DNA of 64,000 bases, taken from NCBI GenBank assembly GCA_903831815.1, contig CAIKZC010000002.1:7244-71243 (forward strand), read 5' to 3'. The notes beneath the pieces are model-generated. The model ran no database searches. It had not been told where the DNA came from and saw only the letters and a list, made by a program, of their open reading frames with translations. Shown piece after piece: positions 6,074-57,136 of the stretch; the stretch's first letter is position 1, and the number at the start of each line of letters is the position of its first letter. The DNA comes from an uncultured bacterium. GTDB taxonomy: Bacteria > Patescibacteriota > Minisyncoccia > Phycocordibacterales > UBA11359. The position numbers and the translations under genes were made by a program.

Positions 6074-6301
6074 ATTAGTGTTTTAAATGTCTTATATAGA
6101 TTACGTGTCCTTTACTTACCTGTCCTATAACATTTCCACCTGTCTTTTAAAATAAATTAGAACGAATTTATGTCCATTATAGTATAGGACAAAGTTGAGC
6201 GTCAATATATACAAATTTGATAAATGTGCTCTTGATAGGGCACACTATCTTAAGATAAGATAAAATCTTTCTTGAGGTCTTTATGGAAATTTTAATATTT
6301 C

Positions 6302-6327
6302 TTTAGAATTTTTTTATAAATATTTTA
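6302..6327 (+). promoter_or_regulatory. shared AT-rich promoter-like motif, copy 3 (shorter), upstream of ftsK
   Basis: TTTAGAATTTTTTTATAAATATTTTA 57 nt before the ftsK ATG. Same gene-relative orientation as copies 1 and 2. Confidence 0.4.
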
Positions 6328-6383
6328 TCCCCTCTAGTATATGTTTATTATGTCCTCGTATGATATTATTACTCTAAACACAT

Positions 6384-10139: not shown

Positions 10140-10150
10140 ATAAATCGCTA

Positions 10151-10247
10151 CAAACAGGCAGTCCTGAGGGCACAGGTAAATTTCCTGCTGGAAATTTCCT
10201 TCACACTCGCGCCGTCGCGCTCCGTGAGTCCCTCAGGACTGCCTGTT
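10151..10247 (+). repeat. structured palindromic repeat element, copy A (about 100 nt; 68-nt conserved core with two internal hairpins; outer 19-bp stem)
   Basis: AAACAGGCAGTCCTGAGGG-[core GGGCACAGGTAAATTTCCTGCTGGAAATTTCCTTCACACTCGCGCCGTCGCGCTCCGTGAGTCCCTC]-AGGACTGCCTGTTT then TTTCGCTTT. Lies 12 nt after the recA stop, same orientation as recA. Four related copies elsewhere in the window. Confidence 0.8.
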
Positions 10248-10585
10248 TTTCGCTTTACCTCCTCTTCACTTGCATTTGCGAATCATCTGAGTAGTATGAT
10301 AAACAGAAATGATTGTTCTAATACCCTCTAACCTTGGGAGACTTATCCATGAGAACTTCAGTGTGGCCCGATTGGTTTCATCATCACGGAACCAAAGTCC
10401 GCGTCAAAGACGGATGCTCTCCAAATCTACTCATTCTGGAAAGTAGCGCCGGAAGTCTGGTGATACGGCGAAAGAGCGACAACAAATGGACTGTGGACTG
10501 GTAAGTCAGCCAATCCGAGGAAACAGGTGAATTTTCGACCGGAAGACGAATCTTCACGTCAGATGAACTTCGGATTGCCTTTGGA

Positions 10586-10789
10586 TTGAAGGAAACTGGG
10601 ACGCCCTCTGATAGTCCCTCTTTCTTTGACAAGTGGGACTGCGACCGCGCGTTCCAGGGGAAATTCGTCGCAAAAGCTCAGTATCTAAACATTCCGGAGG
10701 GCGGCTCCGGTTTTGATGGAAACCCCAACATATCCATTGAAATCGATGATGCTATCCGTGATGCGGTGAGGAACATTGTGGAATACTGA
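10586..10789 (+). CDS. hypothetical small protein (TTG start), weak call
   Basis: 67-aa ORF followed by a terminator-like hairpin. It is in frame with an upstream 51-aa ORF (10349..10501) across a single TAA. No recognisable domain. Confidence 0.25.
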   Translation: MKETGTPSDSPSFFDKWDCDRAFQGKFVAKAQYLNIPEGGSGFDGNPNISIEIDDAIRDAVRNIVEY

Positions 10790-10813
10790 GTTTTTCCAAC
10801 ACCTATCGAACCT

Positions 10814-10854
10814 AGCCGACCCAATTACGGGCCGGCTTCTTTTTTTGTTTTTTC
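10814..10854 (+). terminator. rho-independent terminator-like hairpin
   Basis: AGCCGACCC-AATTAC-GGGCCGGCT followed by TCTTTTTTTTGTTTTTT. Confidence 0.5.
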
Positions 10855-10910
10855 TAGTAGACAAATCCCCTATTTTGCCCTAGAATGGCCTTACATTAAC
10901 CAAAAATATC

Positions 10911-11859: not shown

Positions 11860-11914
11860 ATGGGTTTATAATAACACACTGTTTGATGATTTGTTGTGCA
11901 CATCTTTTGCGGAC

Positions 11915-12010
11915 GAGAGTGCCTATGCAGGGACTCACGGAGCGCGACTGGCGCGAGTGTGAAGGCAATTTTCAGCAGAAAATTGACCTGTGCCCTGCAT
12001 AGGCACTCTT
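11915..12010 (-). repeat. structured palindromic repeat element, copy B (reverse orientation, downstream of rpsR)
   Basis: Outer 17-bp perfect stem AGAGTGCCTATGCAGGG / CCCTGCATAGGCACTCT. Core is about 90% identical to copy A. Hairpin 1 is changed to CAATTTTC-TGCT-GAAAATTG, compensatory relative to A's AAATTTCC-TGCT-GGAAATTT. Confidence 0.8.
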
Positions 12011-12028
12011 GGTAGCAAAAGTAATACA

Positions 12029-12057
12029 CAAAAAAACCACCGAGCGGTGGTTTTTTT
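12029..12057 (-). terminator. bidirectional rho-independent terminator downstream of rpsR
   Basis: AAAAAAACCACCG-AGC-GGTGGTTTTTTT. Confidence 0.7.
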
Positions 12058-12070
12058 GTTAATTCGCAAA

Positions 12071-13248: not shown

Positions 13249-13305
13249 AAATTACAGCCTATCACAGGCCTTTTGGTTATGCAATAGTTATAGCAAATTA
13301 GGGTT

Positions 13306-13341
13306 AAAATATTTATAAAAAAATTATAAAGAAATTCTAAA
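13306..13341 (-). promoter_or_regulatory. shared AT-rich promoter-like motif, copy 2, upstream of rpsF-ssb-rpsR
   Basis: TAAAATATTTATAAAAAAATTATAAAGAAATTCTAAA, 34/37 identical to copy 1. 58 nt upstream of the rpsF ATG. Overlaps the 3' end of tatD. Confidence 0.5.
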
Positions 13342-14145
13342 GATTTTTAGAGCGTTATTTACAAGATTTTTTTTCATTTCTTCTGTTGAAATACCCTTTA
13401 TTTGAGCCATTTTTTCGACTACTTGTTCAACATAGGACGGTTCGTTGCGTTCACCTCGATGTGGAATTGGAGCCACAAACGGCGCATCAGTCTCACTCAT
13501 AATCATATCAAGCGGAGCGTATTTTACCGCTTCATCATAGGCTTTTACAAAAGTTATGACGCCGGTAAACGATACGGAAAAACCAAGATTCAGGTATTTT
13601 TGCTCAATTTCTGTTGTCCCCGTGAAAAAGTGGGCATTACCCCGCAATTTTTCGCCGTATATTTTCTTTTTTGCCGCTAAAATATCCAAAACATCTTCGT
13701 GAGCATTGCGCACATGCAACATCATCGGTTTGTCATACTTCGCCGCAAAGTCGATTTGTTTTTCAAAATCTTTTTTCTGGCGAATTTTATCTGCTTCGGT
13801 AATTGTGTCGCTCGGAATATTAGGATCATTTTTCGATCGACCGTAATCCAAACCACACTCACCTATCGCTACCACTTTTGGATGCACGACCAGTTTTGCA
13901 AACCCCTCTTCATTAAAAGTTTGTGTCGACACATCATCAGGACCATCGTGTGGATGAAGCCCGATAGCTGTATAAACATTTTTATGTTTCTCGGCAATTT
14001 CAATCTCTTTTTTTGAAGTTTCCAAATTTACGCCGACACTAATCGTCCAAACTCCCCTTTCCAACATACGAGCAATAACCTCCTCACGATCCTTGTCGTA
14101 GTCGGGAAAATGCAAATGTGAATGGATATCAAAAAATTCAGGCAT
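13324..14145 (-). CDS. tatD: TatD-family metal-dependent DNase/hydrolase
   Basis: FDIHSHLHF start motif, conserved His/Asp/Glu positions, 273 aa. Confidence 0.8.
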   Translation of the reverse strand: MPEFFDIHSHLHFPDYDKDREEVIARMLERGVWTISVGVNLETSKKEIEIAEKHKNVYTAIGLHPHDGPDDVSTQTFNEEGFAKLVVHPKVVAIGECGLDYGRSKNDPNIPSDTITEADKIRQKKDFEKQIDFAAKYDKPMMLHVRNAHEDVLDILAAKKKIYGEKLRGNAHFFTGTTEIEQKYLNLGFSVSFTGVITFVKAYDEAVKYAPLDMIMSETDAPFVAPIPHRGERNEPSYVEQVVEKMAQIKGISTEEMKKNLVNNALKIFRISL

Positions 14146-33606: not shown

Positions 33607-34095
33607 TTATACGGCCAAACGCATTCGAGACTGACCTCGAACAAACTCCGGAAACAAAGGATGTTGAGTTTCATCATCTTTTTGCATCCTGGCAAGCTTG
33701 TCCGCCACCAAAGTGGCACCGTCGGTTCGTAAATCACGATATCGACGAAATTCAAAGCCCGGCTGACGAGTGTCAATGATGAGATCAGACACAAGAGATC
33801 CTTCGCGAGCAATAGCCAAACATGGCATACCCCTCGCCTCAACTTGTGTGGCCATTTCATAGCCAAGACCGGTTGCCGGATGATCACAGACTGCAACCAT
33901 CAGACAACATCTCATGACACAATCATGAATATCGTAACGATATATCTCGTAGGGAGGAAAATCTCCCAAACCCAAAAATGAAAGTACGGTGCAAAACGAC
34001 TTGACATTGATCTTGAAGCCCTCGATCTCCGCGCGAAATTCTGGCGGAGCATGAGTCAAACCACAACCAATATAAACCTTGCGATCAAAGAACAT
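33607..34095 (-). CDS. nucleoside 2-deoxyribosyltransferase-like / Rcl(DNPH1)-like deoxynucleotide N-hydrolase
   Basis: RBS AAAGGAG 8 nt before MFFDRKVYIGCG. VAVCDHPATGLGYEMATQVEARGMPCLAIA matches the catalytic Glu-containing GxGxExG(y)A motif of the NDT/Rcl superfamily. GC-richer than the neighbours. Confidence 0.55.
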   Translation of the reverse strand: MFFDRKVYIGCGLTHAPPEFRAEIEGFKINVKSFCTVLSFLGLGDFPPYEIYRYDIHDCVMRCCLMVAVCDHPATGLGYEMATQVEARGMPCLAIAREGSLVSDLIIDTRQPGFEFRRYRDLRTDGATLVADKLARMQKDDETQHPLFPEFVRGQSRMRLAV

Positions 34096-34177
34096 GGCCA
34101 GCTCCTTTTGTAAAAAGCCAAAGTTAAATCCTAAATATAATATAAGCCCAACTGAATAAAAAAGCAAAAAAGAGCCC

Positions 34178-34225
34178 CGGGTTTTGTTCGTCGCTTTCTT
34201 GCGACGAACAAAACCCGGGGTATAC
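34178..34225 (-). terminator. strong rho-independent terminator (21-bp perfect stem) after the 34228..34770 gene
   Basis: CCCCGGGTTTTGTTCGTCGC-TTTCTT-GCGACGAACAAAACCCGGGG. The minus strand continues CTCTTTTTTGCTTTTTT. Confidence 0.75.
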
Positions 34226-34227
34226 CC

Positions 34228-34770
34228 TCACCCGACACAACGAAGCAACTGGTCACAACCGAAAACAATCTTGCGATTCATGTCCCACCACTTGTCCCAT
34301 GGTCTGGCGACTTCAGCCTGAAGACAAAGCCGGCCATGATCATCTCCAAAGATCCTTAGGATGCAAGGATCGCTCGCCGAATCAAGGCGTTGATTCATGA
34401 CAAACCACAGGTCAATGCCCCTGTAAGTCGGCCGGCGGCTAAGGTGAACTGCGACAGCCAAAACGGCCTCGCTTGGACAGATCCGACCGCCTATACTTGG
34501 AATGTAACTCCAGATCTCGTGAGTGGCGGGGATGGATTCAAACAGCATATCGAGGCGAGCCGCAGCCAAATTGAGCGGTATCACACTTCGACACAGGCTA
34601 CTGAATCCCCTACTTTTGATCACGAAGTCGGCCTCCGGCAAAACATGAACGCCCACGGCATTCAAAATAAGTGCCCATTCATCCTCTGTTTTGTATGCCG
34701 CTTCGATCTGCATCCAAAACATTTCACGCGCACTTCTGACAGTACGTTTCTGGATTGTCATCTGTGACAT
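34228..34770 (-). CDS. GC-richer hypothetical protein (about 180 aa)
   Basis: RBS AGGAGG 7 nt before ATGTCACAGATG (MSQMTIQ...). Strong terminator downstream. No domain recognised. Confidence 0.45.
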   Translation of the reverse strand: MSQMTIQKRTVRSAREMFWMQIEAAYKTEDEWALILNAVGVHVLPEADFVIKSRGFSSLCRSVIPLNLAAARLDMLFESIPATHEIWSYIPSIGGRICPSEAVLAVAVHLSRRPTYRGIDLWFVMNQRLDSASDPCILRIFGDDHGRLCLQAEVARPWDKWWDMNRKIVFGCDQLLRCVG

Positions 34771-34884
34771 CGCGCATTCCTCCTGAAAAGAACTCCGTTT
34801 AAAATTCAAAACGATTGACGCTGACATTAATTAAACGTCCGCCAGATTACATTGTCAACGAATAAGTATTTAAAAAACAAAGTA

Positions 34885-34980
34885 AAAGAGCAGTTTTGAG
34901 GGACTCACGGAGCGCGACGGCGCGAGTGTGAAGGAAATTTCCAGCAGGAAATTTACCTGTGCCCTCAAAACTGCTCTTTT
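34885..34980 (-). repeat. structured palindromic repeat element, copy C (reverse orientation, 3' of rplK)
   Basis: Core identical to copy A over 68 nt. Outer 19-bp stem AAAAGAGCAGTTTTGAGGG / CCCTCAAAACTGCTCTTTT. T-run on the minus strand after the element. Confidence 0.8.
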
Positions 34981-35002
34981 ACTTTGCTTTCTACTCTTTT
35001 TA

Positions 35003-35428
35003 TTATTTAACCACCTCCACCCCCATCGATCGTGCCGATCCTTCAATGATCTTCATAGCGGCTTCAATATCGTTGGCGTTTAGATCAGGAAGTTTCTTTT
35101 CAGCTATTACACGAATTTGAGCTTTGGTAATCTTGCCGGCTTTGGTAATTTTGTTCTTGCCGGAACCTTTCTCGATCTTGATAGCCTTAAGAATCATGTT
35201 GGAAGCAGGCTCAGTCTTGTAGGTCATCTTGTAGGTACGATCCTCGAAAACTTCGATGATCGTAGGTACATTTTCACCGGCGCGAGCTTTGGTTTCGTCG
35301 TTAAAACGCTTGACGAATTCGCCAATGTTAATACCGGCCTGACCTAGAGCAGGACCGAGAGCTTGTCCGGGAACGGCTTTACCGCCGGGAATAATCAATT
35401 TTAATCTTTTTGTAACTTTTTTTGCCAT
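35003..35428 (-). CDS. rplK: 50S ribosomal protein L11
   Basis: MAKKVTKRLKLIIPGGKAVPGQALGPALGQAGINIGEFVKRFN... is the uL11 signature. Confidence 0.95.
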   Translation of the reverse strand: MAKKVTKRLKLIIPGGKAVPGQALGPALGQAGINIGEFVKRFNDETKARAGENVPTIIEVFEDRTYKMTYKTEPASNMILKAIKIEKGSGKNKITKAGKITKAQIRVIAEKKLPDLNANDIEAAMKIIEGSARSMGVEVVK

Positions 35429-42426: not shown

Positions 42427-42536
42427 GCAACATTGTGTTATTGTGAAAAATTATCATTGCTCCGCAGGTATAAAAATTGATATACTTTTATTCACCTAAG
42501 AAAAAGCAAAATTTATTAACCAATATTTTTTCACGT

Positions 42537-44867
42537 ATGAGTCCAACGACAAAAGCGGAAATAAAAAAAATTTCCAAGGCAGCAGATCTTATAAAAACGA
42601 TCCAAAAACGAGACGGTTCGCTTGTCGATTTTAATTTTGAAAAAATTGTTATTGCAATTAACAAGGCGATGAATGCTGTCGGTGAAGGTTCCGAGGACGA
42701 AGCCCGTATTGTCGCCACCAGAGTACTTTCCGAACTCGTGCGCATCAAGAAAAAATTCAAAAATTTCGTCCCGACCGTCGAAGGCGAACAGGATATCATC
42801 GAAAAAGAACTTATTTTAAGTGAATACGTGAAAACCGCTAAAGCTTACATTCTTTACCGCGAAGAAAGAAACAGAATTCGAGAAAAAAGACTCGAAGTTC
42901 CTGAAAATGTAAAAAAAATGGCGGAAGAAAGCAAAAAATACTTCCGCAACTCGCTCGGTGAATTCGTTTACTACCGATCTTACTCAAAATGGATCGACGA
43001 AGAAAATCGCCGAGAAACTTGGATTGAAACAGTCGATCGATATATTGCGTTCATGAAAGAAAATTTGGGCAACAAACTCAAAGACACCGAATACAAAGAG
43101 GTTCGTGAGGCGATTTTAAAACACGAGGCAATGCCATCGATGAGACTTTTGCAATTTGCCGGCAAAGCGGCTCGCGCGACGAACGTTTGCGCATACAATT
43201 GTTCGTTCATCGCTCCGACATCTTTTCAAGACCTCGCCGAGATCATGTACATTTCCATGTGTGGAGCCGGATCTGGCTGGGCAGTAGAAAGCACCAATGT
43301 TCAAAAATTTCCACAGATCGAGCCTCAGACCGGCGAAAAACTTCCGACATTTGTCATTCCCGATAGCAAGGAAGGTTGGGCCGACTCGCTTACTCTCGGT
43401 ATGAAGACTTGGGCCAGCGGCAAAGACATTGCTTTTGACTATTCACAACTTCGACCGGCAGGAGCACGACTTGCAACCATGGGAGGAAAATCATCCGGTC
43501 CTGCACCACTCATGAGACTTCACAATTTTACCCGCGACACAATGATGTTAAGACAAGGTAAACGTCTACGAAACATCGATGTACATGACATTATATGTAT
43601 GATTGGTGATTGTGTCGTTTCCGGTGGAGTTAGACGAAGCGCCATGATCTCGCTCTCCGACCTCGATGATGCCGAAATTCGAGATTCAAAGAAAGGTGCC
43701 TTCTACGTTGCTCATGGACACAGAATGTTGGCTAATAACTCGGCTGTTTATATCAATAAACCAAGTAATGAAGACTTCCTTAAAGAATGGATGGCTCTCA
43801 TTGAAAGTCACTCGGGAGAACGCGGTATTTTCAATCGAGGATCATTGGCTAAAACACTGCCGGAGAGACGTATAAAGGTCTTGAAACAATATAAAGGATA
43901 TTTTGACGCTTCAGGACAAAATATCATTGGACCGATCGGCACCAATCCTTGCGGAGAGATCATTTTGCAATCAAAACAGTTCTGTAACTTGTCCGAGATC
44001 GTCGCTCGAGCCGAAGATACCGAAAAAACTTTGTTAAAGAAAATGCGTATAGCCACGATCATCGGAACCTACCAATCATCTCTCACTTTCTTCCCTTACC
44101 TTTCAAAACAATGGCAAGAAAATTGCGAGAAAGAAAGATTACTGGGAGTTTCCGTAACAGGTCAATGGGATTCGCCTGTTGCTCGCAAACCGGAAGTTTT
44201 GAAAAAACTCCGCGAAGAAGCCATAAAACAAAATAAATTGTTCGCAAAAAGATTCGGTGTTGGCGAATCAACCGCCATCACTTGCGTAAAACCATCCGGG
44301 ACTCTTTCACAAACCGTTGATTGCTCATCCGGCATGCATCCACGACATTCTCCTTACTATATCCGACGTGTTCGCATCAGCGCCACCGACTCATTGTTCA
44401 AAATGCTTCGCGATCAAGGTGTACCCTATTTCCCGGAAGTTGGACAAACAATGGAAAATGCTTCAACTTATGTTTTGGAATTCCCTGTCGCCGCTCCGGC
44501 CGGTTCGATTTATAAAAACGACATTAGCGCCATTGATCAACTTGAGCACTGGAAGATCGTAAAAGTAAATTACACCGAACACAATCCATCCGTAACGGTT
44601 TCAGTTGGCGATAATGAATGGATCGAAGTAGCAAATTGGGTTTACAAAAATTGGGACATTGTCGGAGGTCTTTCATTCCTTCCACGAGACAATCACGTCT
44701 ATCAACTTGCCCCGTATGAAGCTATCGACAAGAAACGATACGAGGAACTTTCAAAACGACTTGAACACATCGATTACTCAAAGATCATTTCTTACGAGAA
44801 GAAAAATGAGCAAGATCTAAAGAGAGAGTTGGCGTGTGCGGGAGGTGTTTGTGAGACAGCATTATAA
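42537..44867 (+). CDS. nrdJ: class II (adenosylcobalamin-dependent) ribonucleotide reductase with N-terminal ATP-cone
   Basis: ATP-cone IQKRDGSLVDFNFEKIVIAINKAM. Catalytic NPCGEI motif. C-terminal Cys pair ACAGGVC. Start taken at MSPTTKAEI; the track ORF begins at 42477 with an implausible extension. Confidence 0.65.
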   Translation: MSPTTKAEIKKISKAADLIKTIQKRDGSLVDFNFEKIVIAINKAMNAVGEGSEDEARIVATRVLSELVRIKKKFKNFVPTVEGEQDIIEKELILSEYVKTAKAYILYREERNRIREKRLEVPENVKKMAEESKKYFRNSLGEFVYYRSYSKWIDEENRRETWIETVDRYIAFMKENLGNKLKDTEYKEVREAILKHEAMPSMRLLQFAGKAARATNVCAYNCSFIAPTSFQDLAEIMYISMCGAGSGWAVESTNVQKFPQIEPQTGEKLPTFVIPDSKEGWADSLTLGMKTWASGKDIAFDYSQLRPAGARLATMGGKSSGPAPLMRLHNFTRDTMMLRQGKRLRNIDVHDIICMIGDCVVSGGVRRSAMISLSDLDDAEIRDSKKGAFYVAHGHRMLANNSAVYINKPSNEDFLKEWMALIESHSGERGIFNRGSLAKTLPERRIKVLKQYKGYFDASGQNIIGPIGTNPCGEIILQSKQFCNLSEIVARAEDTEKTLLKKMRIATIIGTYQSSLTFFPYLSKQWQENCEKERLLGVSVTGQWDSPVARKPEVLKKLREEAIKQNKLFAKRFGVGESTAITCVKPSGTLSQTVDCSSGMHPRHSPYYIRRVRISATDSLFKMLRDQGVPYFPEVGQTMENASTYVLEFPVAAPAGSIYKNDISAIDQLEHWKIVKVNYTEHNPSVTVSVGDNEWIEVANWVYKNWDIVGGLSFLPRDNHVYQLAPYEAIDKKRYEELSKRLEHIDYSKIISYEKKNEQDLKRELACAGGVCETAL

Positions 44868-44895
44868 GAAATAATAGCTGTAAAAAGAAAAAGTA

Positions 44896-44990
44896 AAAAG
44901 CAGTTTTGTGGGCACAGGTAAATTTCCTGCTGGAAATTTCCTTCACACTCGGCCCGTCGGCCTCCGTGAGTCCCTCAAAACTGCTTTTTA
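44896..44990 (+). repeat. structured palindromic repeat element, copy D (3' of nrdJ, between convergent genes)
   Basis: Core identical to A except hairpin 2 reads GGCC-CGTC-GGCC instead of GCGC-CGTC-GCGC, which is compensatory. Outer stem AAAAAGCAGTTTTGTGGG / CCCTCAAAACTGCTTTTT followed by a T-run. Confidence 0.8.
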
Positions 44991-44998
44991 CTTTTTCT

Positions 44999-45565
44999 CT
45001 ACACACCTAGTGCTTGTGATGCCGAAGCTATCAAATAAATACCGATAAAGTTGAGGATCAAGGTCATAGGGATCAAATAGCGGGTTTTCATTTTTGAAAT
45101 TCCCATCAAACTGAGACCGATCTCGTCCGGCAGAGGAGAAATGATCACCACTGCTCCTACAAGCGGCCCGAACCATCGTAAAAAAGTAAAATGCGTCTTG
45201 CTTAAAATCTTCTTAAATCTTGAATCCTTGATCGCCCCCCTTACATCTTCGGAAAAAACATCTCGAATAAAATAAAAAATAATCAAGTCGCCGAGCATGG
45301 CGCCAAAAGCCCCCCATGCAGCCAGAGTAAAAGGGTCGATGCTTTTGGAAAGATGGGCAATGGCGATAGATGCTGGTGAGATTGTAAAAATACTTGTCCA
45401 AAAAAGTCCGGCGATAAAACTTTCAACAACAGACCATCCTTGCGAAACACTCAAAATTTTATCCAGAACACCAAATCTCACCAAAAAAATCGTGAACACG
45501 ATACTTAGACCCAAAATAAACATGTCACGTCGAAGATTTTTGTAGTAATCGATCTTTTTGATCAT
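44999..45565 (-). CDS. hypothetical integral membrane protein (about 5 TM)
   Basis: Hydrophobic segments throughout. No motif recognised. Confidence 0.4.
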   Translation of the reverse strand: MIKKIDYYKNLRRDMFILGLSIVFTIFLVRFGVLDKILSVSQGWSVVESFIAGLFWTSIFTISPASIAIAHLSKSIDPFTLAAWGAFGAMLGDLIIFYFIRDVFSEDVRGAIKDSRFKKILSKTHFTFLRWFGPLVGAVVIISPLPDEIGLSLMGISKMKTRYLIPMTLILNFIGIYLIASASQALGV

Positions 45566-46270: not shown

Positions 46271-46303
46271 GATCAAAGTGCAGAAAAGATAGAGAAGAAA
46301 AAA

Positions 46304-46406
46304 GTAGAAAAGCAGCTCTCGAAGCACACGGAAATCGCCTTACTGGCGATTTCCTTATCCTCGCGCCAGTCGCGCTGCGGAGTGCTTCTGCGAGTTGCTT
46401 TTCTAC
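46304..46406 (+). repeat. structured palindromic repeat element, copy E (divergent variant; between convergent genes, overlapping the rarA stop region)
   Basis: Outer stem of about 24 bp, GTAGAAAAGCAGCTCTCGAAGCAC / GTGCTTCTGCGAGTTGCTTTTCTAC (a few mismatches). Hairpin 1 GGAAATCGCC-TTACTG-GCGATTTCC. Hairpin 2 CTCGCGCCAGTCGCGCT conserved. Followed by TTTTTAGTTTTT. Confidence 0.7.
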
Positions 46407-46409
46407 TTT

Positions 46410-47546
46410 TTAGTTTTTCTTATAGTATTTCTTGCCTTTCAATTTCTCCGGCAATAAGTCTTCCTTGGTATATTTCTCATAACCTTTTCCGTAATCAAGA
46501 TCTTTCATGAGTTTAGTTGGAGCATTCAGAATATTTAAAGGTATTGGCAAATTACCGAATTTTTTAGCGTCATCCAAAGCAGTCATGTAGGCATAATATG
46601 CCGACTTGTTTTTTGGCGCTTGTGAAAGATATACGACACCATGTCCCAAATTGATTCCCGCTTCGGGATATCCTATCGTCTCTACTGCTCTAAACACCGC
46701 ATTGGCCAACACCAAAGCGTGAGGGTCTTCCATACCGACATCTTCACTGGCAAAAATCACCATGCGCCGAGCAATAAATTTTGGGTCCTCCCCCGCTTCG
46801 ACCATACGAGCCAGATAATACAGCGCCGCATCCGGTTGACTGGCTCGCATGCTTTTTATAAAAGCGCTGATGGTGTTGTAGTGTTCATCGCCTTTTTTGT
46901 CATAACGCAAATATTTCGATTGCAGAGATTTCTTGAAATTTTCTATTGTCATCTCTCCGTACAATCTTTCGGTATTTTCGATCAAAGCGATAGCTTGTCG
47001 AGCATCACCACCCGATGCCGCCACGAGCCAATCCTCCACCTCTTTCGAAATATCAAAACCTGTACGTCCGATAATTGTTTTTATTTCATTCTCGGCCAAT
47101 TCGTTGAGCACAAAAACTTGGCAACGCGAGAGAAGTGCCGGGATAACTTCAAAACTCGGATTTTCGGTCGTTGCACCGATTAAAGTCAATTTACCGGATT
47201 CAACATAAGGCAAAAGAAAATCTTGTTGAGCTTTATTAAATCGATGAATCTCATCGAGAAACAATATTTTGGCGCCAAAAAGTCCGGCCGGTGCATTCAC
47301 GATTTCTCGAATATCATCTTTTCCGGCCGACACCGCCGAGAGCTCATGATATTCAGCCTTGAGCGATTTGGCGTATATTCTAGCCAACGTCGTCTTGCCG
47401 ACTCCGGGCGGTCCCCATAAAATAAAAGAGAAAAGATGTTTTTTGGCCACAGCAACGCCGATCGGTTTATCATCCCCGACCAAATGTTCCTGCCCGACAA
47501 ATTCAGAAAGGTCTTTCGGCCGTATCTTTGAAGCCAGCGGTTCCAT
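46410..47546 (-). CDS. rarA: replication-associated recombination protein A (AAA+ ATPase RarA/MgsA)
   Basis: Walker [10 protein letters not shown], Walker [11 protein letters not shown], sensor and arginine-finger regions, C-terminal MgsA helical domain. Confidence 0.85.
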
Positions 47547-54712: not shown

Positions 54713-55234
54713 TTACACCATGGTCACCATGTTTTGCCAAGGCTTTACGAAACTTAAAAACCTTCGCTTTTCAAGCTTATCATGATGTATGAGGTAATGG
54801 CAATTGTGACAGAGCCAAACTAGATTTTTTATATTTAAATTTGAGTGATCTTGATCGATGTGATGCACAACAAGAATTCTTGAATCTACCTTGTGACAAA
54901 GTAAACATTCTGCTTTTAATCCGCTTTTTAACACTATTTTTCTATAAATCGTCTGCCCACCCTTCCAACCTAAATGTTTTTTGCCGCTATATTCAACATT
55001 CCTCCATTTAGTCTGACAAGATTTTCCACAAAAATATTTACCACTTTTAGAACGACTAATTTGCGACATTGTTTTATAAATAACTTTGTTACAAACATAA
55101 CAATTGGTCTCTTTTCTAGTTCTTGTACCAAACTTCTTACAATATCTTGAACAAAATATCCCCCACCCTATTTTTTCATGACTAGGTTTTACATAAAAAT
55201 CATTATTGCAAATTTTACATTTATGAATTGACAT
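54713..55234 (-). CDS. HNH endonuclease with N-terminal zinc-ribbon repeats (paralogue 1)
   Basis: Multiple CxxC pairs, then VVHHIDQDHSNLNIKNLVWLCHNCHYLIHH (HNH motif). Confidence 0.7.
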   Translation of the reverse strand: MSIHKCKICNNDFYVKPSHEKIGWGIFCSRYCKKFGTRTRKETNCYVCNKVIYKTMSQISRSKSGKYFCGKSCQTKWRNVEYSGKKHLGWKGGQTIYRKIVLKSGLKAECLLCHKVDSRILVVHHIDQDHSNLNIKNLVWLCHNCHYLIHHDKLEKRRFLSFVKPWQNMVTMV

Positions 55235-55757
55235 TTATTTTAATTTTACTATTAAATCTCGTTAGTTCAGAGGAATTATTATGAACAAGAAAATGGCAAT
55301 TGTGACAAAGCCAAGTTAAATTAGATAAAGAGTTATTCTCTCTATTTTTATCAATATGGTGAACCGACAAAATACGGGGATCTTTTTCTCCACACAATAT
55401 ACAAATAATCGCAGTATCAGCCCTTTTCAAAATATTTTTATATGAGAACTTACCATTTATCCAATTTGAGTGATTTTGTCCCCTATTTTTACCGCCAAGC
55501 CATTTATTGCTACAATTTACGCCACAAAAAAACTTTTTATTCTTTGAATTATTTATATCTTTATTTTTCTTATAGACTTTCTTACCGCAAACAAAACATT
55601 CAATAATTTTACCTTTCTTCCTACCTAGAATTTGACATTTAACTGAACAATAATGTTTTTTGGCAAGAAGAACTTGCGATCTTTTTCTTACAAAATATCG
55701 AGAACATATTTCACATCGAATAATCATTGTTCCATTATAACACAATGGATGACTCAC
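55221..55757 (-). CDS. HNH endonuclease with N-terminal zinc-ribbon repeats (paralogue 2)
   Basis: CxxC pairs, then SVHHIDKNRENNSLSNLTWLCHNCHFLVHN. Collinear with and similar to the downstream paralogue; overlaps it by 14 nt. Confidence 0.7.
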   Translation of the reverse strand: MSHPLCYNGTMIIRCEICSRYFVRKRSQVLLAKKHYCSVKCQILGRKKGKIIECFVCGKKVYKKNKDINNSKNKKFFCGVNCSNKWLGGKNRGQNHSNWINGKFSYKNILKRADTAIICILCGEKDPRILSVHHIDKNRENNSLSNLTWLCHNCHFLVHNNSSELTRFNSKIKINVNS

Positions 55758-55784
55758 TGTTAGTATCGAACGTTCTGGATGATA

Positions 55785-56339
55785 CTATTTGTAATTAGGC
55801 GATTCTTCGGTAATTCCAGACTTGTGGTTACTTAGTCTAGCGAGAGCATAGAGAATGCTGGAAAGACGATTGAGAAAAGCGAGGGTTGTCGGTTGAATTT
55901 TAACCTTCCCCTCTTCAGCGACCGCGACGACTCGGCGCTCGGCACGGCGCGCGATCGTGCGCGCGAAATCAAATTTCGCCGCCATTTCGGTACCGCCGGA
56001 AATAAAGAAGGTTTTTATCGGCGGCATTTCGCGCTCACAGGCCACGATTATTGTTTCCATTTCTTTGATTTTTTCTTCCGGCACATCCATCGGAAATCCG
56101 GCCACCTGAGCTTGCACCATAAAAAGTGTTTGCTGCAGACCATGCAAGATCGCTTCAAACTTCTTGTTGGCAATCACAAAACTGCGTCTTTCTGAAGCAA
56201 CTTTGCAAATTCCAAGAAACGAGTTTATCTCGTCGAGTGAACCAAGGGCTTCGGCCACAATCGAGCTTTTAGACAACTTCTGGTCGCAACCATAAGTCTT
56301 TGTTGAACCGTCATCACCTTTTCCTGTGAATAGTGACAT
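55785..56339 (-). CDS. ATP:cob(I)alamin adenosyltransferase, PduO type
   Basis: N-terminus MSLFTGKGDDGSTKTYGCDQKLSKSSIVAEALGSLDEINSFLG matches the PduO-type ATR signature (TGDxGxT ... DELNS). Confidence 0.8.
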   Translation of the reverse strand: MSLFTGKGDDGSTKTYGCDQKLSKSSIVAEALGSLDEINSFLGICKVASERRSFVIANKKFEAILHGLQQTLFMVQAQVAGFPMDVPEEKIKEMETIIVACEREMPPIKTFFISGGTEMAAKFDFARTIARRAERRVVAVAEEGKVKIQPTTLAFLNRLSSILYALARLSNHKSGITEESPNYK

Positions 56340-56361
56340 ATAATTTTAGGTTATGAATATG

Positions 56362-56445
56362 TGCTCGGGACAGGACTTGCACCTGCACGCCCTTACGGGC
56401 TTACGCACCTCAAGCGTAAACGTCTACTAATTTCGCCACCCGAGC
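56362..56445 (-). tRNA. tRNA-Leu(GAG)-like, type II with long variable arm; atypical D-loop and T-loop
   Basis: 84 nt. Perfect 7-bp acceptor GCTCGGG/CCCGAGC plus discriminator A. Anticodon stem TACGC/GCGTA with loop TTGAGGT. Variable arm GCCC-GTAA-GGGC. T-stem GCAGG/CCTGT. D-loop lacks the GG dinucleotide and the T-loop reads TGCAAGT (G at position 55). No encoded CCA. Confidence 0.45.
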
Positions 56446-56446
56446 G

Positions 56447-57136
56447 TCATTTTGTCAATATCCGCACCGTCTGTTTATGAACTATAGCTAAACTTTGCTT
56501 AATTTTCAAGTTTTTTCTAGATAAGCAAGTAACATCCTGTTTGTAATACATACCTTTAACTAAAGCAATCCCCTCTTTTTTTGCGTATCTAAGTTGATAG
56601 CAACCATTCAACCTATTTGTATAGGTTACATGTCCATTTAATTTCAAAAACCTGAAAACAGATGCCTGAATCCAATCAATGAATTCCTTACTCGCAGAAG
56701 CAAGACTTAGATAAAACATAAAGCTAGATCTCCAACGTGGATCCCAATATGAATAACTACAACCATCACCGTCAAAACACCCTCTCAAAAAATCGAAGAA
56801 ATATTCGTCTGGAATTTTAATTTTTCCAATTGTTAAAGACTTTGCTGAAGTGATTCCAATACTCTGAAGAAATTCATAAAACAGCACGTCTCCAAACTGA
56901 ATTCTGAAAGACATATTCTTTCCGCCTCCAGAAAAAGTTTTACCAACTTTAATGTCAACAATATTAAGACATTTCACAAAATTATTTATCTGTTCTATAT
57001 CTTTTGAAACAAAAATAATATGTCGACCATCACACGAAAGACAACCATCCGTAACAATCAACCCAATCGAATACGCAAAATTTGCCGACCATTCAATTTT
57101 GATTTTTCCTTTTGGTTTTGGTCCTGTGATGCTCAT
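56447..57136 (-). CDS. LAGLIDADG-family homing endonuclease (single chain with two motifs)
   Basis: Motif 1 YSIGLIVTDGCLS, motif 2 FLRGCFDGDGCS. 229 aa. Stop codon 1 nt from the tRNA-Leu-like 5' end. Confidence 0.75.
   Translation of the reverse strand: MSITGPKPKGKIKIEWSANFAYSIGLIVTDGCLSCDGRHIIFVSKDIEQINNFVKCLNIVDIKVGKTFSGGGKNMSFRIQFGDVLFYEFLQSIGITSAKSLTIGKIKIPDEYFFDFLRGCFDGDGCSYSYWDPRWRSSFMFYLSLASASKEFIDWIQASVFRFLKLNGHVTYTNRLNGCYQLRYAKKEGIALVKGMYYKQDVTCLSRKNLKIKQSLAIVHKQTVRILTK

Follow-up and report, generated by a model that had tools for sequence, protein, structure and literature searches.

Short hairpin-forming repeats between genes are known from several bacterial groups. The closest described systems are the REP/BIME elements and REPINs of Proteobacteria, which are short, multi-copy extragenic hairpins that often lie at the 3' ends of genes or between cistrons, fall into subfamilies and vary in presence and absence. 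REP/BIME hairpins stabilise the upstream mRNA or act as terminators. The Correia elements (NEMIS) of Neisseria and the ERIC/IRU elements of enterobacteria are dispersed intergenic sequences of 100-150 nt that form long hairpins in transcripts and are polymorphic between strains, and they can act as terminators or processing sites. The genomes of Patescibacteria (candidate phyla radiation) are tiny, very few of these bacteria have been cultured, and to our knowledge almost no non-coding elements have been studied experimentally in them. Here, we investigated a structured intergenic repeat in one stretch of patescibacterial DNA (the whole 64-kb stretch, called the window), with emphasis on the copy designated D.

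Position and Fold of Copy D

Copy D lies between two convergent genes, namely nrdJ on the + strand (stop codon 44865-44867) and, on the - strand, a gene for a 188-aa membrane protein with a weak VTT-domain match (stop codon 44999-45001). Its hairpin starts 18 nt past the nrdJ stop codon and ends 1 base short of that of the convergent gene, so that the gap is exactly filled. This setting, followed by the run CTTTTTACTTTTTCTCT on the 3' side (44984-45000), had been given by the original prediction and agrees with the coordinates; the span marked there (44896-44990) likewise agrees with the repeat copy at 44895-44989. Two independent ENA metagenome contigs carry an identical D, its GGCC arms included. 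The longest ORF of nrdJ (42477-42540 region) has 796 aa with a TTG start, about 20 residues more than close homologues (770-776 aa), and the true start is probably downstream of this TTG.

The element as a whole is a hairpin of about 110-130 nt, in which variable outer arms, one of them often rich in A and the opposite one in T, carry a tip of 65 nt. For D, a long hairpin was predicted on both strands with RNA or DNA parameters alike. The predicted folding energy was -61 kcal/mol for the + strand and -71 kcal/mol for the - strand, and the z-scores were -8.1 (+ strand) and -9.5 (- strand) for RNA and -11.7 for DNA. The parts of copy D are as follows:

44886-44908, + strand: 5' arm of the outer stem, A-rich, 23 nt, paired with 44976-44998 in the RNA and DNA minimum-free-energy folds
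44910-44974, + strand: conserved 65-nt Y-shaped tip with a three-way junction (RNAalifold consensus and covariance models)
44920-44939, + strand: hairpin 1, AAATTTCC-TGCT-GGAAATTT, 8 bp, loop UGCU; 6 of 8 pairs covary in the family
44951-44962, + strand: hairpin 2, GGCC-CGTC-GGCC, 4 bp, loop CGUC; 4 of 4 pairs covary, with 98% of cells paired over 28 distinct sequences
44976-44998, + strand: 3' arm of the outer stem, T-rich, ending 1 base ahead of the stop codon that closes the convergent 188-aa gene

Within the tip, P1 is formed by GGG(C)AC and GU CCC, P2 consists of AGG(U) and hairpin 1, and P3 pairs UCAC with GUGA and continues through an internal loop (ACUC/UCC) to hairpin 2. An independent RNAalifold run gave the same three-way junction and the same hairpin 2, with 12 covarying pairs. 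Most nucleotides of the tip are predicted to be paired, and the unpaired conserved positions are few. A first pairing drawn by hand, in which the first CAC paired with GUG and AGU formed a bulge, was dropped for the RNAfold/RNAalifold structure, because the divergent subtype of the repeat has a continuous P1 (GAAGCAC/GUGCUUC, as in copy E below) and a covarying extension of P3.

Five Copies in the Window and Their Compensated Differences

An unfiltered model search of the 64 kb found exactly five copies of the repeat. Besides D, these are:

Copy A, 10147-10253, + strand: tip 10168-10232; hairpin 2 at 10209-10220 with GCGC arms
Copy B, 11890-12035, - strand: tip 11930-11995; hairpin 2 at 11942-11954, GCGC CAGTC GCGC
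Copy C, 34871-34993, - strand: tip 34900-34964; hairpin 2 at 34912-34923 with GCGC arms
Copy E, 46296-46412, + strand: divergent subtype, outside the earlier lettering A-D; hairpin 2 at 46363-46375, GCGC CAGTC GCGC

Four of the copies (A, C, D and E) start 8-26 nt past a stop codon and have T-runs on their 3' side. Copy A begins 8 nt past the stop codon of recA with TTTTT directly 3', and C lies immediately past that of rplK. Copy B comes after rpsR and after a distinct plain terminator (12023-12064), and it has no T-run. The outer arms of C and D are 86% similar over 125 nt, and the differences between them, one indel included, are mirrored between both arms. Copy E, situated 1.3 kb downstream of D between an ORF for a 63-aa SPW-domain protein and the convergent rarA, has outer arms that resemble those of C and D; its hairpin 1 is GGAAATCGCC/GGCGATTTCC, and its junction sequences differ from the main type while the architecture is the same.

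The pattern CTCGSSCCGTCGSSCTCC matched three times in the window, compared with 0.01 matches expected:

10206-10223, + strand: copy A, GCGC..GCGC
34909-34926, - strand: copy C, GCGC..GCGC
44948-44965, + strand: copy D, GGCC..GGCC

The hairpin-2 segment of D reads CTCGGCCCGTCGGCCTCC and that of A and C CTCGCGCCGTCGCGCTCC, and B has the same hairpin-2 arms as A and C with one base more in the loop. Copies A and C have the same 65-nt core. The core of D differs from it at 4 positions only (core positions 43, 44, 51 and 52; CG>GC in each arm), which amount to 2 fully compensated base pairs of hairpin 2; the probability of this outcome for 4 random substitutions is about 5e-5. The switch from GCGC to GGCC in both arms, which had been read from these copies at the outset, is exact. 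Moreover, the core of B has 4 substitutions that make up 2 compensated pairs of hairpin 1, together with 1 inserted loop base. Among the four cores A-D, 8 of 8 substitutions sit in compensated pairs.

Covariation and Distribution of the Repeat Family

A gapped search pattern in which both mini-hairpins were left free led to 13 metagenome loci and 1 MAG labelled Candidatus Saccharibacteria, while a stricter pattern with GGGCAC...GTCCC ends was too strict and had no genome matches. The first set for covariation was an 18-sequence MAFFT alignment. A first covariance model (R1) revealed divergent copies, E among them, and a second one (R2), built from 8 divergent copies only, recovers every main-type copy; it yielded 29 copies in 20 Patescibacteria loci (257 kb). 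Copy D scored 93 bits with R1 and 42 bits with R2.

In the 18-sequence alignment, 97.7% of the cells were paired, compared with 81% after shuffling and 40-52% with the partners slid, and double changes were found at 12 of 19 pairs. The covariation score was 0.47, against 0.17 for shuffled alignments (0 of 500 reached 0.47) and at most 0.17 with slid partners. In hairpin 2, all four pairs had changed on both sides and 98.6% of the cells were paired. Among the 29 R2 copies, which have double changes at 24 of 24 pairs, hairpin 2 was paired in 98.1% of the cells, the exceptions being one wobble (GUGC/GCGC) and one mismatch (CCGC/GCAG). At least 9 different complementary hairpin-2 arm pairs exist among these 29 copies, including GCGC/GCGC, GGCC/GGCC, CCGC/GCGG, GGAC/GUCC, AGGC/GCCU, AGAC/GUCU, AGAU/AUCU and GCCU/AGGC. 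Most of these variants are not self-complementary tetramers, so it is the complementarity between the arms that is kept, rather than a palindrome repeated in both arms; D alone could not distinguish between the two. Within the tip, hairpin 2 forms a true helix, whose sequence is free while the two arms remain complementary. A second compensatory helix within the core, as proposed by the original prediction, was thus confirmed by the covariation of both sets (about 98% paired, 4 of 4 pairs covarying), whereas the palindromic tetramers that it also pointed out hold for A, C and D and are not a kept feature of the family. The loops are shared across subtypes, with UGCU or UUACU in hairpin 1 and C(A)GUC in hairpin 2; the hairpin 1 of one locus (L016) has an unrelated stem sequence (CGTTCCG/CGGAACG).

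The GCGC and GGCC alternatives also occur in the divergent subtype (GGCC CAGTC GGCC in L017a; GCGC in L017b, in copy E of the window and in L022B), as would be expected with an exchange of alleles, so the D allele could be an imported patch and not one that evolved in place. According to this assumption, GGCC would have arisen through a gene-conversion patch of about 12 nt or through one-step template switching within the hairpin, and D alone would say little on selection. Both arms of hairpin 2 lie within 12 nt, and hybrid copies of the repeat exist (L020B). We nevertheless consider such an origin very unlikely. It concerns the D allele only and is compatible with both leading explanations discussed below, and the at least 9 complementary arm pairs, set against 1 mismatch and 1 wobble, need a force that acts against unpaired variants.

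The NrdJ and RecA homologues of the window were labelled Taylorbacteria, Parcubacteria, Pacebacteria or Patescibacteria, which indicates that the hosts are Patescibacteria. In these Patescibacteria (Parcubacteria/Paceibacteria-like hosts), the repeat is intergenic, dispersed, structured and lineage-specific. At gathering scores, Rfam 15 gave only four tRNAs in the whole window, and when D was scanned at a relaxed cut-off (E up to 10), nothing but unspecific matches to long hairpins (miRNA precursors), far below threshold, came up; by these two scans a known RNA family was ruled out. An origin from phages, plasmids or viruses was rejected as well, since blastn found no meaningful matches in phage and plasmid collections and the pattern had no match in viral contigs. 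Full-text literature searches found no description of this repeat, and their sole matches, TIGR arrays and tRNA group I introns of Patescibacteria, are unrelated to it. So far, the repeat is undescribed for Patescibacteria, and at present it belongs among the structured dispersed intergenic repeats and terminator hairpins.

Turnover at Orthologous Sites

In the relatives that were compared, the flanking proteins are 92-97% identical, yet the sites after nrdJ, recA, rpsR and rplK differ in what they carry:

After nrdJ: copy D in the window; plain A/T-flanked terminator hairpins without the tip in L017 and L019
After recA: main-type tip (A) in the window; the same tip on unrelated arms in L022; divergent subtype in L020; small plain hairpin in L021
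After rpsR: plain terminator and B in the window; plain terminator and hybrid subtype in L020; plain terminator only in L021; divergent subtype only in L022
After rplK: main-type copy (C) in the window; plain terminator and a B-like copy in L006; divergent subtype in L017

At the recA site, the tips of the window and L022 are identical at 67 of 68 positions. One outer-arm type occurs at different loci, after rpsR in the window (B) and after rplK in L006. At third codon positions, the recA, rplK and nrdJ genes of the compared genomes share 46-65% identity, indicating that synonymous sites are close to saturation, and yet the tips are 94-100% identical. The differences at the four orthologous sites show that the turnover of the repeat is fast. 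The near-identical tips reflect either strong purifying selection on almost every nucleotide or the copying of the tip or the whole hairpin between sites and genomes.

The main alternative, although not a probable one, is that the repeat is a mobile or copy-pasted element at the DNA level. Its Y-shaped hairpin would be a folded single-stranded DNA substrate, and a candidate enzyme would recognise the tip and copy it into intergenic hairpins or in their place; complementarity would be kept for folding during mobility or by hairpin-templated repair, and not for an RNA function in the host. Such an element might be likened to REP/REPIN with RAYT, IS200/IS605 ends, integron attC sites and the T-shaped ITRs of parvoviruses. 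The presence/absence and subtype replacement at the four sites, the same tip on unrelated arms (A and L022), the same arm type at different loci (B and L006), the DNA fold z-score of D and the mirrored arm differences of C and D are all in its favour. A Y1 transposase gene in one related contig also fits (L019 13261-13920; PF01797, 219 aa; 1 kb downstream of an nrdJ whose product is 81% identical to that of the window), but no copies of the repeat were detected near this gene or elsewhere in the 22-kb locus. Moreover, a Pfam screen of the 10 function-unassigned ORFs of the window found no transposase, RAYT or HUH protein, and the collections of phages, plasmids and viruses had no matches. Conserved terminal inverted repeats are absent, and a check for target-site duplications found no consistent direct repeat at the window copies; a CTCCG-like pentamer flanks the GGAG subfamily, where it may be part of the element itself.

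A further idea treats the tip as an independent, Patescibacteria-specific module, either a new catalytic or protein-docking RNA or a folded-DNA recognition site, which would be actively copied into the tips of intergenic terminator hairpins by a dedicated mechanism. We regard this as rather unlikely; such a mechanism would explain the near-identical tips on unrelated arms in genomes with saturated synonymous divergence.

Several observations on the surroundings of the copies were made in passing. The plain terminator after rpsR (AAAAAAACCACCGCTCGGTGGTTTTTTT) is kept across relatives (window 12023-12064; L020 13350-13385; L021 12865-12895), and the segment just 3' of it is swapped between repeat subtypes or absent. 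The rplK region of the window (33607-35428) has no rplA next to rplK; instead, it contains copy C and two ORFs (199 and 186 aa) that match nothing in Pfam, together with a perfect 20-bp hairpin at 34175-34220. The arrangement in L017 is the same, and the lineage may lack ribosomal protein L1 at this locus. In two related metagenome contigs, L005 (2226-2735) and L015 (373-1553), one main-type and one divergent copy are placed around rpsO or the xerC-like recombinase gene next to it; their arrangements differ, which is a local rearrangement around the repeats. The outer stems of E, L017a, L017b and L022A share a small, recurrent asymmetric internal loop, 5'-UC / 5'-UGC (CTCTCG...CTGCGAG). Hairpin 2 of the divergent subtype is flanked by the same UC/UGC loop, and a perfectly paired version of it (CTCTCGG...CCGAGAG) is present in L017, in the plain terminator of the empty nrdJ site.

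Orientation and Strand

In the clade of the window, each of the 12 complete copies points in the same direction as its upstream gene, and in the window itself this holds for 5 of 5 copies. In other clades, about 6 sense sites compare with 5 antisense sites. Some copies lie between divergent genes (L005/L015, L011), and others are antisense to both neighbours (L004, L007, L016, L005b, L015b), with intact tips. Based on these divergent and antisense positions, termination of the upstream gene cannot be the only reason for the family. The intact tips in both orientations would also fit the mobile element described above, but copies in the window ignore the uniform GC skew while they track the direction of the upstream gene.

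A replication-strand bias was rejected, as GC skew is uniform across the window, yet three copies lie on the + strand and two on the - strand. A gene-specific cis-regulator was rejected too, the flanking genes being unrelated housekeeping genes. The strand on which the element acts was sought in the balance of wobble and A-C mismatches in the outer arms and the tip, and neither strand was picked. The outer arms have 12 G.U-compatible mismatches in the forward and 35 in the reverse direction, an excess due for the most part to a single inherited site of one subfamily, and the tips have about 12 forward and 8 reverse. This symmetry of wobble pairs is again in line with an element that acts as DNA. 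Fold energy did not pick a strand either: the reverse strand is usually the more stable one, which is explained by its G/U-rich composition.

Another explanation is that the tip is a functional RNA module presented by the terminator-like arms, such as a binding site of a lineage-specific protein, a small RNA derived from the 3'-UTR, a self-cleaving ribozyme or a ligand-binding junction. The strong conservation of the 65-nt tip at near-saturated synonymous divergence, with stems that still covary, is what such a module would show, as are the loop sequences kept across subtypes and the constant sense orientation in the window's clade; a dispersed, multi-copy distribution is also seen for many small ribozymes. 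However, the invariance of the main-type junction was partly built in, for the search pattern required those bases, and the junction sequences differ in the divergent subtypes. The scarcity of unpaired conserved positions in the predicted tip, the lack of any Rfam match even at E = 10, the inconsistent gene association and the intact antisense copies also weigh against an RNA module, which we think unlikely.

A Proposed Role of Copy D as a Terminator or 3'-End Hairpin

The explanation to which we give about an even chance is that D is a bidirectional terminator or 3'-end hairpin with a family-specific branched tip, in which hairpin 2 is a real helix. Transcripts of nrdJ would contain D at their 3' end, as would, from the opposite strand, those of the convergent gene for the membrane protein. 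Already folded, the tip would draw the two outer arms together, and the long stem with its U-run could then function as a bidirectional intrinsic terminator and a protective 3'-end hairpin. D would thereby do the job of the plain hairpin found at the nrdJ site in close relatives.

Some features of canonical terminators are present in D. A stable hairpin follows just past the stop codon, and a U-run occurs on the 3' side on both strands, with the 3' arm and tail reading CTGCTTTTTACTTTTTCTCT and the 5' arm being its A-rich complement. The compact geometry of a short stem and a 3-8-nt loop is not, as D has a branched "loop" of 65 nt, and a consensus terminator scan did not call D. The suggestion that D is a bidirectional terminator fits the evidence and may be kept as the best-supported reading: its site, the A- and T-rich arms, the plain hairpins in L017 and L019 and the sense orientation throughout the window's clade speak for it, while the T-run is the 3' arm of the outer stem itself, B lies behind a terminator of its own, and copies elsewhere sit in non-terminator positions. 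Terminator function alone does not account for the near-perfect conservation of the tip. This conservation may reflect an interaction with a protein or another RNA, or a demand of the copying mechanism.

The repeat is abundant (5 copies in 64 kb), with a near-invariant centre and covarying stems. It is an unrecognised building block of gene 3' ends, or a new small mobile element that lives in terminator hairpins. In either case, it offers a covariance model for annotation, a marker of recent recombination or mobility, and an easily synthesised object of about 130 nt for assays of termination, cleavage and protein binding.

Other Features of the Window

Between copy A and efp lies a gap of 660 nt (10250-10910) with no convincing ORF and no Rfam match. 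In relatives, this gap measures 184 nt (L022) or 469 nt (L020), or contains an extra ORF of 151 aa (L021). In the window, it could represent the remains of a gene or an RNA that has not been described. A second, AT-rich repeat of about 40-75 nt (...TAAAATATTTATAAAAAAATWWTAAAGAAATTCTAAA...) occurs at 543-625, 6278-6346 and 13272-13347, just upstream of gene starts and in the orientation of the gene (the ORF at 1-572, ftsK and rpsF), which is suggestive of a promoter or 5'-leader element common to these genes. The region 54713-57136 holds two adjacent paralogous ORFs (173 and 178 aa) that match HNH endonucleases weakly and below threshold and contain repeated DNA (54779-54826, 55275-55322), as well as an ORF with a LAGLIDADG domain (229 aa); it forms a homing-endonuclease-like cluster near tRNA genes.

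Comparison with Known Systems

The repeat resembles the REP/BIME elements and REPINs in the properties given at the beginning, but REPs are simple imperfect palindromes of 20-40 nt that possess a conserved 5' tetranucleotide, usually occur in inverted pairs and are linked to a RAYT gene, whereas the repeat is a single hairpin of 110-130 nt with a branched conserved centre. No RAYT was found among the 10 screened ORFs of the window, and a Y1_Tnp gene is present in the relative L019, in a locus where no copies were detected. Correia and ERIC/IRU elements are similar to it in size, dispersal, transcript hairpins and polymorphism. In contrast to the patescibacterial repeat, which has variable ends and a conserved centre, they possess conserved terminal inverted repeats, joined in Correia elements by a duplicated TA target, lack a conserved branched tip and show no similarity to it in sequence. 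The presence/absence polymorphism at the nrdJ, recA, rpsR and rplK sites recalls MITEs, from which the repeat differs in that conserved terminal inverted repeats are absent and the arms vary (among A, B, C/D, L022, L014 and L010) while the centre is conserved.

The T-shaped ITRs of adeno-associated virus provide a structural analogy only: they too combine a long stem with two internal hairpins in about 125 nt and fold as single-stranded DNA. The repeat is chromosomal, dispersed and bacterial, no Rep/HUH protein was found, and there is no sequence similarity; an inversion of the tip relative to asymmetric arms (flip/flop) was looked for in the divergent subtype, and none was seen. Finally, D shares with canonical bidirectional intrinsic terminators the order of A-run, stem and T-run between convergent genes, and such plain hairpins occupy its site in L017 and L019. 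It is set apart from them by a stem of at least 23 bp, a 65-nt "loop" that is a three-way junction, two covarying mini-hairpins and a tip conserved across genomes.
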